From the IMG/VR virus record IMGVR_UViG_3300045988_011788: a stretch of DNA of 43,337 nt; one strand, given 5' to 3'. The translations under genes and the position numbers were made by a program. Below the pieces are notes generated by a model. It was not told the DNA's origin. It saw only the letters and a program-made list of their open reading frames with translations, and made no database searches. Shown here piece after piece: positions 5,845 to 24,387 of this stretch (the stretch's first letter is position 1; each line of letters starts with the position of its first letter). The DNA is from a virus.

Positions 5845-6259
5845 CGCTCTCAAGCTCCTTTGCCATTTCCTTTAAGCTCTGACTGAGTGCGTCTTCCCTC
5901 ACCGTGTCGGCAGGGCTGCCGCCGATCATCGCCCACTTATCAATCAGCGTCCCCATCGCCGTTGTAATCTGGCTGAGATTTGCCGCTGCCAGCTTCTCCG
6001 GGTCGTTGAGCATTTCAAGCCCCTTGCCGATGAACGAACACACAAGGTCTTTGTGGTCGTTCATGTACTCCATCACATCGGCGGTGTTCTCTTCCTTTTT
6101 TTGCTCGCACTTTTCCACAATGTCAGCATTTGCTCGCACAAGATTCTTAACGGTTGTTGCGGACACGCCGTTGATTTTCGCTGTGGCGCAATAGTTGTTC
6201 GTCTGCACATAGTCCGCCAGTATTTTCTTCTTTTGACGGTCTGTCAGCCTTGCAGCCAT
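5837..6259 (-). CDS. terS: Terminase small subunit
   Basis: Start refined to MAARLTDRQKKKILADY behind GGAG. N-terminal HTH-like segment, immediately upstream of and overlapping terL. Confidence 0.72.
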   Translation of the reverse strand: MAARLTDRQKKKILADYVQTNNYCATAKINGVSATTVKNLVRANADIVEKCEQKKEENTADVMEYMNDHKDLVCSFIGKGLEMLNDPEKLAAANLSQITTAMGTLIDKWAMIGGSPADTVREDALSQSLKEMAKELESDD

Positions 6260-6485
6260 TGTCACCACTCCATTTTTTTGTGTCACTTACACCGCAGCAA
6301 TACTCATACCACGGTAACGGCATTACTTCCTGTTGTTCTTCATACAGCGTATCAAACATCTTCATGATGTTTTCCACGGTGTATCCGTACTCAGCCCAAA
6401 GCTGGGTCTTGAATTTTTCAAGCAGGCGCATATTGATTTTTACCTGCTTGTCCATTTCTTCCAGCGTATAAATTTTTCCGATCAC
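6147..6485 (-). CDS. Hypothetical protein; its 3' third overlaps terS out of frame
   Basis: 112-aa ORF (MIGKIYTLEEMDKQVKINMRLLEKFKTQLWAEYGYTVENIMKMF...). The N-terminal ~65 aa look protein-like, but the last ~113 nt overlap terS, so the true extent is uncertain. Confidence 0.35.
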   Translation of the reverse strand: MIGKIYTLEEMDKQVKINMRLLEKFKTQLWAEYGYTVENIMKMFDTLYEEQQEVMPLPWYEYCCGVSDTKKWSGDNGCKADRPSKEENTGGLCADEQLLRHSENQRRVRNNR

Positions 6486-6786
6486 AAGGCATCACCTCGT
6501 TTTGCTACCAGCCCCCACCCCTTGGCCTTACATAGCAGACTTTACCCGCCCCAAAGGGCTACAACGCCGCCCACATTTGGCGTTATTCTTTCCATTGGCC
6601 GTCTTTCTCGCTTAGATTGTCACACGCTACCGACAACTACGCTCCGAAAAGTCGTAGCCCCTATTCCGTCAGGTCAACCCGGTCTTGACGCATCAAGACA
6701 AGCGCAGTTTTCAGCGAGCTTTGTCATTTCCATGTGAGCCATGACGCCAACGGTCTCACATTGTCCGGGCGCTACCCGGCCTCTGT

Positions 6787-6860
6787 CAGGGACGGTTGGG
6801 AATCGAACCCACCCAAGCGGTTTTGGAGACCGCCTCGCCATCCTTGGAACATTCGCCCCT
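6787..6860 (-). tRNA. tRNA-Trp(CCA)-like element with a non-canonical D-arm (possible pseudo-tRNA or tRNA-like module)
   Basis: On the minus strand the acceptor AGGGGCG/CGTCCCT has 7 pairs, the anticodon arm is GCGGT-CTCCAAA-ACCGC, and the T-arm is GGG-TTCGATT-CCC. The D-region TGTTCCAAGGATGGCGAG does not form a 4-bp stem, and there is one extra nt at the T/acceptor junction. Confidence 0.5.
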
Positions 6861-7091
6861 AAATGTCCCCGCTGGGCCACATCGTTGAGAGGTGCGCGGG
6901 GTCCTGTTCCGCATGAGAGGTGCGACCTCTCGGCCCTGATCGTGCGTGCGTGCGGCATATTGCGGGGGCGGTGTGAAAAGATGAAAAGCACCGCGCCCCG
7001 CTATGGCGCAGGAGGTAAACGCCATAAATGAGAGAACCGCAAAGGCTTTTACACCTCTGCGGTTCAATTTTCTCATGATTGCAATACCCTG

Positions 7092-7109
7092 ACTCACTTA
7101 TAAGTGAGT
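7092..7109. promoter_or_regulatory. 18-bp perfect palindrome ACTCACTTATAAGTGAGT just downstream of the XRE gene
   Basis: Read directly. It could be an operator-type site or a hairpin at the 5' edge of the structured block. Confidence 0.4.
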
Positions 7110-7123
7110 TTTGCAAAATATTT

Positions 7124-7342
7124 TTATAAACTTTTTGGATAGTCCGACCTGCCAAGCAGGTAGTCAATCGACACGCCGAAATAATCAGCAATGCTTATCA
7201 GCGCGTCCATTGACGGTTTCTGCGTCCCCATCTCATAGCGCTTGATGGTGTTACGGTTCAGCCCGCACAGCTCAGACAGAACGCAGCGCTTTAATTGCTG
7301 GCGTTCGCGTAACCTCCGCAGCCGATCAGGAAACGTGCTCAT
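7124..7342 (-). CDS. XRE-family HTH transcriptional regulator
   Basis: 72 aa with a classical Cro/C1 HTH (LSELCGLNRNTIKRYEMGTQKPSMDALISIADYFGVSIDYLLG). Confidence 0.85.
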   Translation of the reverse strand: MSTFPDRLRRLRERQQLKRCVLSELCGLNRNTIKRYEMGTQKPSMDALISIADYFGVSIDYLLGRSDYPKSL

Positions 7343-21986: not shown

Positions 21987-22014
21987 CTTTTCACCTCCAA
22001 ATACTAAGTTTTAC

Positions 22015-22042
22015 TTGACAACTTAGCGAACCGTGATATTAT
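22015..22042 (+). promoter_or_regulatory. Candidate sigma-70-type promoter reading toward the CI-like gene
   Basis: TTGACA-16 nt-TATTAT. Confidence 0.5.
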
Positions 22043-22121
22043 AAGAAGTGCCAACAAACTAATAATTTCGACAGTCCGCTAAGTATCAAGGGGGCTTACT
22101 TTTTTATTGCCCTATGCTTAC

Positions 22122-22150
22122 ATTATACTAAGCTCAGCTTAATATGTCAA
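22122..22150 (-). promoter_or_regulatory. Consensus sigma-70-type promoter reading toward the Cro-like/early operon
   Basis: On the minus strand, TTGACA-17 nt-TATAAT (perfect consensus). Confidence 0.7.
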
Positions 22151-22207
22151 GTTGAACTTTGTATTTTGTGTGACTTCGGCGGTTTGTACAAAGGGAGGCT
22201 TAATATT

Positions 22208-22573
22208 TTGGACGGTCCTACGCTTGTTGATATCGTCGAACGCGAGCTCGTTGCTCGACATATAAAAAAGGCGGAATTTTATGCCGCAACAAAAATATCA
22301 AGTGCAACATTTTCACAGTGGAGAAATAACATCTATTTCCCCTCTGCTGCTAATATCAAAACTATTGAAGAATATTTGGGGATTTCAATTTCTTATTCTG
22401 TAGCCGATAAAGCCGCAAAAAAAGAGCGCCCCACCGATGGTGAAGCGCTCATTTCTGAATTGCCCGAAGATATTCAAAAGCTTATTTGGATTTGCGAGTC
22501 AAATCCTGACCTTGCTGCTGCTCTACTATCTGTTGCGCAGCAGATCGAAAAAGGTCAAGTTGCTGGGGAGTAA
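22208..22573 (+). CDS. CI-like HTH repressor (no S24 peptidase domain)
   Basis: TTG start 8 nt after AGGGAGG. HTH (KKAEFYAATKISSATFSQWRNNIYFPSAANIKTIEEYLGI). AT-richer than the genome backbone. Confidence 0.78.
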   Translation: MDGPTLVDIVERELVARHIKKAEFYAATKISSATFSQWRNNIYFPSAANIKTIEEYLGISISYSVADKAAKKERPTDGEALISELPEDIQKLIWICESNPDLAAALLSVAQQIEKGQVAGE

Positions 22574-22731
22574 ATCTCGAAATTGTAATAATCAATTCCT
22601 CTACCGTCGTCATCCTCTCTGCCCTCCGTTCGCTCTCATATAATAAAACAAGTGTTCTATCGCGGGTTAGTATAACACTAATTTTTAATTGATTCAATGT
22701 AATTTAAAATATAAAATTAGGTGAATTTGAT

Positions 22732-23742
22732 ATGCCCATTACCGTATATTTTGAACACGGCCGCGTTGTGGAGCTGTTTCCAGAACCAAATCAATCGTAT
22801 TACGACGTGCGCGATAAGATCAACGCGGCGACTGATATAGTGTCTGATGGAATAAAATACGATTTGACCGATAAGCAATCGATTTATTCTATCGCTATTC
22901 CTGACTATACAAAAGTACGCAATGTCCCCACTTCAAAAGAGTTAGGCCCAACAGGATATCTTGAATATGTGTTGAGAATGCACGCTGGTTTTCTATGGAA
23001 TACCGGAGATTACCAGCTATCAATGGCTTGCCTTGAAAAATCTTGCCAGTTGATGACATATTCCACACTTGGGTGGGAGCGAAAAGACTTTTATAGGGTT
23101 GTCAATTCTTATATTGAGCTTGGTCGATTTAAAAAAGCAAAAGAGTGGAAAGCCTGGATAGATGCCCACACGGAATCTCCGGAAGACTATGCAAAAGACG
23201 CATTTGCAAGAACGCTTGAATCGTGTAAAAGACTTAAAACTGATTTAGTAGAGGTTGGCGATTCAAGCGCGTGCTGTGGAATTTGCGCGAAGTACCGGAG
23301 ACGGATATATAGCTTATCTGGAAAAAGTTGGAAGTTCCCAAAGTTTCCAGATGATTTCCATTTTCAATGTGCTCTTGGGATATTTGCCTATATTGATGGT
23401 GTTTCCGAGCCGTCTTTCAAATCCATTAGTCCATCTCTGTATAGCAAACGACCGTTTCGCGATGATCGAACAGAAGAAGAAAAGGAAAATTATAGACTTT
23501 GGTTAGAACGTGTTGAAAAGTCTTACAATCCGATCAATGAGCCGAATCTAAATCATATTATTTATTATTGGTTCAAGCCTAAATTCCCCGACGACTTCCC
23601 AAAATCTCTTTCTGGTTTTTCTCGCATGCGAAACGGGAACACAGCAAATTATCAAAAGCTGGCACAGAAGATTGAGGATGCGGGGTATACCATACCTAAA
23701 TCATTAGATGAGGTCGCAGAACGTGAAGAGCGGGAGAATTGA
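22732..23742 (+). CDS. Orphan 336-aa protein in an AT-rich island of the immunity region
   Basis: Clean ORF with an SD (aggtga) and its own terminator. Contains CCGICAKYRRRIYSLSG...HFQC and a duplicated KFPDDF motif. No family recognised. Confidence 0.75.
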   Translation: MPITVYFEHGRVVELFPEPNQSYYDVRDKINAATDIVSDGIKYDLTDKQSIYSIAIPDYTKVRNVPTSKELGPTGYLEYVLRMHAGFLWNTGDYQLSMACLEKSCQLMTYSTLGWERKDFYRVVNSYIELGRFKKAKEWKAWIDAHTESPEDYAKDAFARTLESCKRLKTDLVEVGDSSACCGICAKYRRRIYSLSGKSWKFPKFPDDFHFQCALGIFAYIDGVSEPSFKSISPSLYSKRPFRDDRTEEEKENYRLWLERVEKSYNPINEPNLNHIIYYWFKPKFPDDFPKSLSGFSRMRNGNTANYQKLAQKIEDAGYTIPKSLDEVAEREEREN

Positions 23743-23770
23743 AAAGTTGCAAGGCGGTATAGCTTAGATT

Positions 23771-23810
23771 GGCCCCGCCGCCCTCTGCAACAAACGGCGG
23801 GGCCTTTTCG
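23771..23810 (+). terminator. Rho-independent terminator
   Basis: GGCCCCGCCG-14 nt-CGGCGGGGCC followed by TTTTCG. Confidence 0.8.
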
Positions 23811-23973
23811 CAGCCAGCGGGAAGCGGTCGCCGCTGCATGTTTTGACCATACTCCGCTTTACCTTACCACTTCAATACCAAGACCTTGCAACACGACGGC
23901 ATTCGACCGCGTTCGACAGACCCACTTTTGGCACCCAAAACGGGCAGAAACCGGAAAAGTTAAGGTGATGTAA

Positions 23974-24387
23974 ATGAACATTCAAGAGCTGTGTAGAATC
24001 CGTAAAGAAGAACTGAAACTGACTTACCACGACATTTCCGACGCTTCCGGCGTGCCGCTGTCCACCGTGCAGAACTTCTTTTCCAAAATGTCGAAAGCCC
24101 CGTCCATTTACACCGTCGCGCCGATCTGCAAGGTGCTCGGTATATCCCTTGACGAAATATTCGGGATTTCCGAACACTTGACACCAACCGAGGAAACCTT
24201 ACAGGCGCGCAACGATGAGCTGGAACGCCACGTGGACGCAAAAGCAGACACGATCGAGATCATGCGGCGCGGAGTTCGTATCCGAAACGGCGTGATTGCT
24301 ATAATGTTCCTCATTATCGTTTTTCTCGCTGTGTGGTGCGTGTACATTGATTTTCATTGTATAGATTACGGATTTTGGAGGGGCTGA
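23974..24387 (+). CDS. Membrane-anchored XRE-HTH protein (C-terminal TM helix)
   Basis: N-terminal HTH (LTYHDISDASGVPLSTVQNFFSK...), a coiled segment, then the TM helix VIAIMFLIIVFLAVWCVYI. Only 1 nt separates it from the integrase ATG. Confidence 0.8.
   Translation: MNIQELCRIRKEELKLTYHDISDASGVPLSTVQNFFSKMSKAPSIYTVAPICKVLGISLDEIFGISEHLTPTEETLQARNDELERHVDAKADTIEIMRRGVRIRNGVIAIMFLIIVFLAVWCVYIDFHCIDYGFWRG

Follow-up and report, generated by a model that had tools for sequence, protein, structure and literature searches.

A probable composite non-coding early/late junction in a temperate Oscillospiraceae phage, with an uncatalogued structured RNA fused to a tRNA-type 3' end

The window analysed here is the whole of IMG/VR virus record IMGVR_UViG_3300045988_011788, a stretch of 43,337 nt of viral DNA, and the subject of this report is a gene-free block at positions 6486-7123, which is read, like its neighbouring genes, on the minus strand. 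The block is probably a composite non-coding junction between the early and late genes of a temperate Oscillospiraceae phage, built from separable minus-strand RNA modules, in which a tRNA or tRNA-like element would act as a handle for a structured RNA that is here called 'mid'. Read 5' to 3', the modules would comprise an operator-like palindrome with a terminator-like hairpin that closes the gene of a helix-turn-helix (HTH) regulator; a conserved leader hairpin; a slot for a tRNA or tRNA-like element, occupied here by an unusual tRNA-Trp(CCA); 'mid' itself, a ~180-nt multi-helix RNA of an uncatalogued family that is fused to the 3' end of the slot element; and a conserved 63-nt leader of two hairpins that carries the ribosome-binding site for the first late gene. 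The modules are inherited separately, 'mid' folds on the minus strand and invariably follows a tRNA-type 3' end, and the order runs from the tRNA-like element through 'mid' and the leader to the late genes.

RESULTS

The 'mid' RNA (6603-6782) occurs once in the window, belongs to no Rfam family and was defined by covariation. It consists of the hairpins P1 and P2 and of the long-range helices P0 (CUCGCU/AGCGAG) and Pa, which enclose P3 (loop UGCG), P5 and P4 (loop UUCG), and it also holds conserved single-stranded motifs. This seven-helix structure was drawn by hand and then turned into a covariance model, replacing a result from MAFFT and RNAalifold that was unreliable because swapped hairpins had been misaligned. 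Whole hairpins are swapped in place among the homologues aligned by MAFFT: GUCUUGA-UGCG-UCAAGAC gives way to GAGGA-UGCG-UCCUC, GGGGA-UGCG-UCCCC or GGAGA-UGCG-UCUCC, and a second hairpin is either CUACG...CGUAG or GCUUGAG...CUCAAGC. The long-range helix P0 flips in the same manner, from CUCGCU/AGCGAG to GUCGCU/AGCGGC and to CCCGCU/AGCGGG.

The pairing of 'mid' was quantified in two alignments. In the alignment made by MAFFT only (A3, 19 sequences), six compensatory pairs were found, compared with 1.0 +/- 0.9 in shuffled alignments, none of 500 of which reached six. When 51 distinct sequences were aligned to covariance model R1 (A4), 96.6% of cells were paired, compared with 30-49% when partners were slid; compensatory change was present in 27 of 45 pairs, compared with up to 12 when slid, and the covariation score was 0.241, compared with at most 0.057, all of these being counts that lean toward the model structure to which A4 was fitted. 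Compensatory changes were found in P0, P1, P2, P3, P4 and P5 alike. At five positions of 'mid' G-U is the commonest pair, and the fold therefore belongs to the minus-strand transcript. Thus, 'mid' is a real structured RNA of the minus strand.

Scanning of metagenomes with a gapped pattern detected 'mid' on at least 119 human-gut contigs, and 100 distinct cores were collected. A scan of viral contigs with 14-mers returned mostly chance matches, ~50 of 120 loci being true. The family also extends to another phage lineage (L090; L numbers designate related loci), which has a different terS and whose upstream gene appears, from a reading of its sequence, to be sigma/ArpU-like. The literature searches found no description of an element of this kind. 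The original prediction, made from the letters of the window without database searches, had allowed for an undescribed RNA; an uncatalogued structured RNA is indeed present, but the part supported by covariation covers only the ~180 nt of 'mid' and not the whole block.

In every context collected, 'mid' is fused to a tRNA-type 3' end. By eye, it begins 3-4 nt past such an end in 48 of 48 distinct contexts of the first set, and in the larger set all 95 distinct contexts carry a tail of N-CCA (66 contexts), CAA (23), CGA (5) or ACA (1, the window) just before 'mid'. In 87 of the 95 the preceding 64-157 nt are enclosed by a perfect 7-bp acceptor-type helix, with a leader ending in ATAT or ATAC in 65 of those 87. 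The elements so delimited are often poor tRNAs: ARAGORN recognised 49 of the 95, often with implausible identities, and about half are not recognisable. Many share the framework GCAGACG...UAGCUCAG..GGUUCGAGUCC..CGUCUGC-A-CCA, within which the anticodon arms are truncated, replaced or expanded. Different tRNAs and tRNA-like elements occupy the slot between identical flanks, and the canonical-looking tRNAs of relatives include a Gln(TTG) as well as a standard tRNA-Trp in L169 and L292.

Related elements also occur as a hypervariable array. In L002-L086, and from L207 onwards, more than 30 distinct tRNA-like elements were seen within the 0.3-1.3 kb that precede terS; acceptor stem, T arm, ATAT leader and NCCA tail are all conserved in them, and the middles are shortened, replaced or enlarged (64-157 nt, with anticodon loops of 8-10 nt and inserts of 40-90 nt); ARAGORN misses these elements or gives them odd identities. 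The shared acceptor ends are probably recombination joints. A recurrent element of 88-91 nt, GCAGCAUAGGUGCC...GCAGGGCAGGACUGCAAUGCUGC-A-CCA (for example at ~2880-2975 of L084, and in L126 and L207), has an acceptor-type closing helix and no further tRNA features, and it is found directly upstream of 'mid' as well. A relaxed acceptor/T-arm pattern run over the whole window gave 662 matches on the plus strand alone and is far too permissive to bear on further tRNA-like relics such as the 5' half of Lc.

In the window itself, the slot holds a non-canonical tRNA-Trp(CCA)-type gene at 6787-6860, the sole tRNA called by ARAGORN in the whole window, in keeping with the tRNA-type module originally predicted on the minus strand. 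Among 20 distinct homologues of three sequence types, the acceptor pairs 2:71 and 7:66 covary, as does the first pair of the anticodon stem, which is 6 bp long. The anticodon loop CUCCAAA and G73, the bacterial Trp identity elements, are near-invariant (18-19 of the 20). Of the parts of a canonical tRNA, the 7-bp acceptor stem, an anticodon arm with a 7-nt loop, a UUCGAUU-bearing T arm and a discriminator base ahead of CCA are present, the CCA being that of the relatives. The canonical D arm (U8, A14 and a D stem of 3-4 bp) and the 7+5-bp stack of acceptor and T stems are absent; position 8 of the window tRNA is A, its T stem contains a G-A mismatch, one extra nucleotide separates the T stem from the acceptor stem, and none of the three sequence types allows a standard or consistent D stem. 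The gene scored below the gathering threshold of the Rfam tRNA model RF00005, its best match within the clan being to the tRNA-Sec model, at 41 bits (cut-off 47). Judged by its sequence, this is a tRNA-Trp-type gene whose competence in decoding is uncertain.

The window tRNA ends in G-ACA (6784-6787), and all relatives encode G-CCA or A-CCA. The CCA-to-ACA change also makes a -35-like hexamer, CTGACA, which a promoter scan paired with GACAAT 18 nt downstream; this promoter-like match is probably due to chance.

The block was then compared with its relatives. A search with terS identified 256 relatives in IMG/VR, 80 of which were fetched, and yielded five prophages in Oscillospiraceae metagenome-assembled genomes (including Oscillibacter and Provencibacterium). 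A search of GenBank phages contributed one unannotated human-faecal phage as a relative; all that it gave was two unannotated 'Bacteriophage sp.' records, with tRNA-only matches and one 33-nt match. Segment-wise BLAST with greedy mapping of 85 loci revealed that the region upstream of terS is a hypervariable mosaic, in which the block resolves into six modules: La (7123-7077), Lb (7076-6955), Lc (6954-6861), the tRNA slot (6860-6787), 'mid' (6786-6601, containing the structured RNA) and 'right' (6600-6486). These assort independently, each being found without the others, and some are reordered or interleaved with other non-coding modules. In an alignment with MT835513, both flanks are 91-95% identical and the tRNA and 'mid' are wholly substituted, and in some close relatives the block has shrunk to ~355 nt made up of Lb, a tRNA-like element and 'right'. 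Since its modules assort independently in relatives (about 200 phage and prophage loci in all), the block is not one large RNA.

Further recurrent non-coding modules were noted in the relatives (types N3, N27, N15 and N16). The junction upstream of terS is a recombination hot spot at which dozens of tRNA-like cassettes have been exchanged between phages.

Folding of the whole block gave a minimum free energy of -264.9 kcal/mol on the minus strand, compared with -227.2 +/- 7.5 kcal/mol for dinucleotide shuffles (z = -5.0), and the same comparison gave z = -3.7 on the plus strand. The eight stems listed in the original prediction, including the tRNA, were all located at the coordinates given there, by reading of the sequence and with ARAGORN; they include those at 6682-6699, 6733-6760 and 6765-6779. 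A cmscan of the whole window against Rfam 15 gave zero matches at gathering thresholds. In a permissive scan of 6300-7300 on both strands (E <= 10), the only notable match was that of the tRNA to the tRNA-Sec model, and no ROOL, GOLLD, HEARO, OLE, raiA, tmRNA, RNase P, group I or II intron, T-box or ribozyme was detected; ARAGORN likewise called no tmRNA in the window. The covariance-model search that had been proposed for several of these families (ROOL, GOLLD, HEARO, tmRNA, introns and RNase P) was thus negative even at this permissive level. Among the weaker hits, a JUMPstart/ops element (RfaH recruitment) at 6623-6644 was rejected as a coincidence, at 16.7 bits compared with a cut-off of 35 (E = 1.4). 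The stretch, GCCGGTAGCGTG, shares 11 of 12 positions with GGCGGTAGCGTG, the ops element of RfaH; since it is the 3' strand of 'mid' helix P5, which covaries from CCGG to GGCA to CACA in relatives, the resemblance is probably fortuitous.

The 'right' module, which follows 'mid', was aligned from 73 distinct homologues. Its 5' part (6563-6602), a spacer with the hairpin AACGCC...GGCGTT (6563-6584), is variable among relatives. Its core, a conserved 63-nt leader of the late operon (6500-6562), is the most widely kept module and is more conserved than its surroundings. The core contains two hairpins, Ra (GCCC-UUUG-GGGC) and Rb (UGCUAU...GUAGCA), the latter enclosing GGCC/GGCU and the G-rich loop AAGGGGUGGG. 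Pairing in helix Rb reaches 99%, two of its pairs show compensatory change, and overall support is moderate. Of 135 cases, 104 have the core on the strand of 'mid' and 0-1000 nt downstream of it, and none has it upstream. The first late gene in these 135 cases is a window-like terS in 53 and an L090-like terS in 4, and 78 match neither terS within 3.5 kb. The 'right' module directly adjoins terS in most relatives; in the remainder the two are separated by an insert, which may be an HNH homing endonuclease.

Upstream of the slot, La (7077-7123) is the 3' flank of the HTH gene and bears the perfect 18-nt palindrome ACTCACTTATAAGTGAGT (7082-7099) directly after the stop codon of that gene. In relatives the palindrome is inherited only along with the HTH gene, and it is probably an operator for the HTH protein. 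Lb (6955-7076), examined by a terminator scan and homologue alignment, contains hairpins H1, H2 and H3. H1 (7028-7076), ATGAGAGAACCGCA...TGCGGTTC..TCTCAT, has a 13-bp GC-rich stem followed by UCUCAUUUAU; in the terminator consensus scan it was scored with a 13-bp stem, 7 GC pairs and the tail TCTCATTTAT. With a GC-rich stem and a U-rich tail downstream of a gene, H1 is terminator-like as a pattern match. H2 (7003-7025) presents the loop UUUACCUCCUG, which resembles an anti-Shine-Dalgarno sequence, and H3 (6962-7001), whose GC stem is 12 bp long, lacks a U tail. Among 29 distinct homologues of Lb (91-100% identical), most changes in H1 are compatible with G-U pairing, L001 and L006 being among the few exceptions.

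Lc (6861-6954) contains the hairpin GAGAGGU-CGC-ACCUCUC (6915-6931) and a leader hairpin (6867-6901) of the form CCCCGC[23-nt conserved loop]GCGGGG, which is followed by ACAUUU just before the 5' end of the tRNA. Pairing of the leader hairpin is kept through at least three compensatory variants, CUCCCC/GGGGAG and CCCCUC/GAGGGG and, in an unrelated phage, through CCCACC/GGGUGG, and the same leader stands ahead of different tRNAs or tRNA-like elements in relatives.

The anti-Shine-Dalgarno-like sequence CACCUC(C/U)U occurs three times on the minus strand of this region, once each in the H2 loop, the 3' arm of hairpin GAGAGGU-CGC-ACCUCUC and the leader-hairpin loop (6880-6895). The Shine-Dalgarno-like sequences AGAGGUG and GAGAGGU are found there too, with no conserved partner. 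Inspection by eye for pairing of the conserved 'mid' loops with the 'right' core or with the H2 loop revealed nothing conserved.

The block is flanked upstream by the gene of a 72-aa HTH_3 regulator (7342-7124) and downstream by a 112-aa open reading frame (ORF) at 6147-6485, with a GTG start at 6485, that is followed by terS and then terL (Terminase_6N/Terminase_3, by library scan). A Shine-Dalgarno sequence, GAGGUG (6493-6498), precedes that GTG start with its spacer (6486-6499). The 112-aa ORF has no family match and overlaps terS by ~110-140 nt in a different frame. It is missing from the first 81 related loci (L001-L081), with a single partial match in a prophage, L084, and its place in other relatives is taken by an HNH homing endonuclease (L083) or a non-coding insert of ~300 nt. 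Within the block, crossing ORFs of 96-134 aa had no significant Pfam or PHROG match, the sole match being RCR at E 0.022, below the cut-off; these ORFs pass through the tRNA, and in relatives an 8-nt indel and the exchange of whole modules disrupt them. The block is therefore free of credible ORFs, as had been proposed, and together with the folding result this upholds its description as non-coding and structured. Elsewhere in the window, at ~22000-24000, GC content falls to 0.39-0.44 and the coding strand switches; this may be a lysogeny module or a prophage cargo region.

DISCUSSION

RNase P recognises its substrates by the base at -1 (U or C), the helix of acceptor and T arm, and the 3' NCCA (RCCA). 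Because the conserved parts of the elements upstream of 'mid' are those that RNase P and 3'-end enzymes read, we infer that the tRNA or tRNA-like element would serve as a processing or stability handle for 'mid'. RNase P would cut at the 5' end of the element, and maturation of its 3' end would set the start of 'mid' free; the other possible product is a stable chimera capped by the tRNA. Once released, the RNA would act in late infection, in the control of late genes or as an anti-defence RNA.

Several observations weigh against this proposal. 'mid' is missing from about half of the close relatives and is for that reason not essential for late transcription. The hairpins of Lb show too few changes for a covariation test and have little or no covariation support, as is also the case for hairpin Ra of the 'right' core, and the covariation counts from the larger of the two 'mid' alignments lean toward the model structure to which it was fitted. 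The promoter scan gave no convincing sigma-70-type promoter for the unit, apart from the weak match made by the CCA-to-ACA change of the window, and the part assigned to RNase P or RNase Z in processing is purely presumed.

The position of the block before the packaging genes invites an interpretation in cis, as the leader of the late operon, in which terminator-like hairpins would stop early transcription and 'mid', the 'right' core or both would act on the same transcript by processive antitermination, of the kind known from HK022 put or the Bacillus EAR RNAs, or by control of translation of the first late gene. Its fixed position and polarity upstream of the late genes, whichever gene comes first, are what such a leader would show, as are the terminator-like hairpins, the ribosome-binding site in which the 'right' core always ends, and a GAGAGGU that could pair with either of two copies of ACCUCUC. 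However, 'mid' is optional in close relatives and lies 0-1000 nt from the late genes with other modules or whole genes intervening, no Rfam match to EAR or another antitermination family was obtained, and the invariable fusion of 'mid' to a tRNA-type 3' end is left unexplained, so that we regard a leader acting in cis as unlikely to account for the block. Cis-acting control is possible for parts of it, especially the 'right' core, and here the earlier suggestion of an element ahead of the packaging genes that controls late transcription may hold for the last module alone (6500-6562), which always lies between 'mid' and the first late gene. Less probable still is that the block is an island of anti-defence RNA cargo, with the tRNA-like elements as decoys or replacements for host tRNAs hit by nucleases or by toxins that modify acceptor ends, and 'mid' as a further inhibitor RNA acting in trans. 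Phage tRNAs that counter tRNA-targeting defences are documented, as for T5 tRNA-Tyr against retron Ec78 (bioRxiv 10.1101/2023.03.15.532788). A hypervariable repertoire with conserved acceptor, T arm and CCA and free-running anticodon regions, distributed in a mosaic, moron-like manner, would fit such a role; the case is nevertheless purely circumstantial, and TGG is the only Trp codon. We know of no Trp-specific anticodon nuclease. A circumstantial anti-defence role of this kind is compatible with the processing handle and not opposed to it.

Two further explanations we consider very improbable. The original prediction had put forward one large ornate RNA of ~640 nt that contains the tRNA and resembles ROOL or GOLLD, or is an analogue as yet undescribed. 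The density of hairpins and the z of -5.0 speak for a structured whole, and ROOL and GOLLD are described as prophage- and tRNA-associated in Firmicutes; the modules, however, are found apart and reordered, the ~355-nt blocks of some close relatives lack much of the proposed RNA, the long-range pairs of the minimum-free-energy fold connect modules inherited apart from one another, and even at E <= 10 there is no Rfam match, so that a single ROOL/GOLLD-type RNA of ~0.6 kb is largely refuted. It is just as hard to credit that the block consists of DNA-level signals (pac or cos, a replication origin, regulator sites) in which the hairpins are incidental inverted repeats. The location just upstream of terS, the conservation of the 'right' core above its surroundings and the palindrome beside the HTH gene would suit such signals, but the compensatory changes and the abundant G-U pairs, which would be A-C mismatches on the other strand, point to a minus-strand transcript. 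The TerL is of the Terminase_6N/Terminase_3 type, which usually means headful packaging with no cos site expected. A physical genome end (cos) at the block was also rejected, as contig ends near terS are scattered and occupy no fixed position. The processing-handle interpretation is thus the one that we favour.

Taken with its tRNA, 'mid' is a phage-borne, tRNA-associated orphan structured RNA, and in this it is like GOLLD and ROOL, orphan structured RNAs in prophages of Gram-positive gut and lactic bacteria that typically lie beside tRNA genes. It differs in having no covariance-model match, in a unit of ~180 nt rather than about 580-800 nt, and in its physical fusion 3-4 nt downstream of a tRNA-type 3' end, not merely its nearness to one. 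In mechanism, the closer analogies are the TMERs of murine gammaherpesvirus 68 and mascRNA/MALAT1, in which a downstream structured RNA (pre-miRNA hairpins in the TMERs) is joined to a tRNA-like element that may have no role in decoding, and conservation falls on the parts that RNase P, tRNase Z and the CCA-adding enzyme recognise. Those systems are eukaryotic and dependent on RNA polymerase III, whereas the present one would belong to a bacterial host, with a 180-nt multi-helix fold and processing that is presumed. In phage tRNA clusters, too, a single tRNA gene or several lie in non-coding DNA close to the packaging genes, but about half of the elements described here are not recognisable tRNAs and the window tRNA-Trp falls below the Rfam tRNA threshold. 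HK022 putL/putR and EAR share with the block a structured RNA set between a promoter-proximal region and a long terminator-containing operon; 'mid' is larger, optional, separable from its operon and matches no family.

We advance more tentatively, and as rather less than an even prospect, the stronger proposal that 'mid' and its obligatory upstream tRNA or tRNA-like element constitute a new class of RNA gene of bacterial viruses, in which a ~180-nt effector would be made by tRNA-type punctuation (RNase P and 3' processing) from a hypervariable array of tRNA mimics at the early/late junction of gut Oscillospiraceae phages, the mimics serving for processing, stability or decoy and not for decoding. 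To our knowledge, the use of a tRNA mimic as a handle for another RNA has so far been known from the herpesvirus TMERs, from MALAT1/mascRNA and from synthetic tRNA-gRNA arrays.

For annotation, the present results indicate that a hairpin-dense gap beside a tRNA is insufficient grounds for calling a ROOL/GOLLD-type RNA, and that tRNA finders applied to viromes miss or misname about half of these elements. The exchange of tRNA-like cassettes bears on how phages meet host defences that target tRNAs. If the favoured interpretation is true, an abundant RNA family of human-gut phages is absent from current catalogues, and these phages would add a case from bacteria in which a tRNA mimic is the handle for another RNA.

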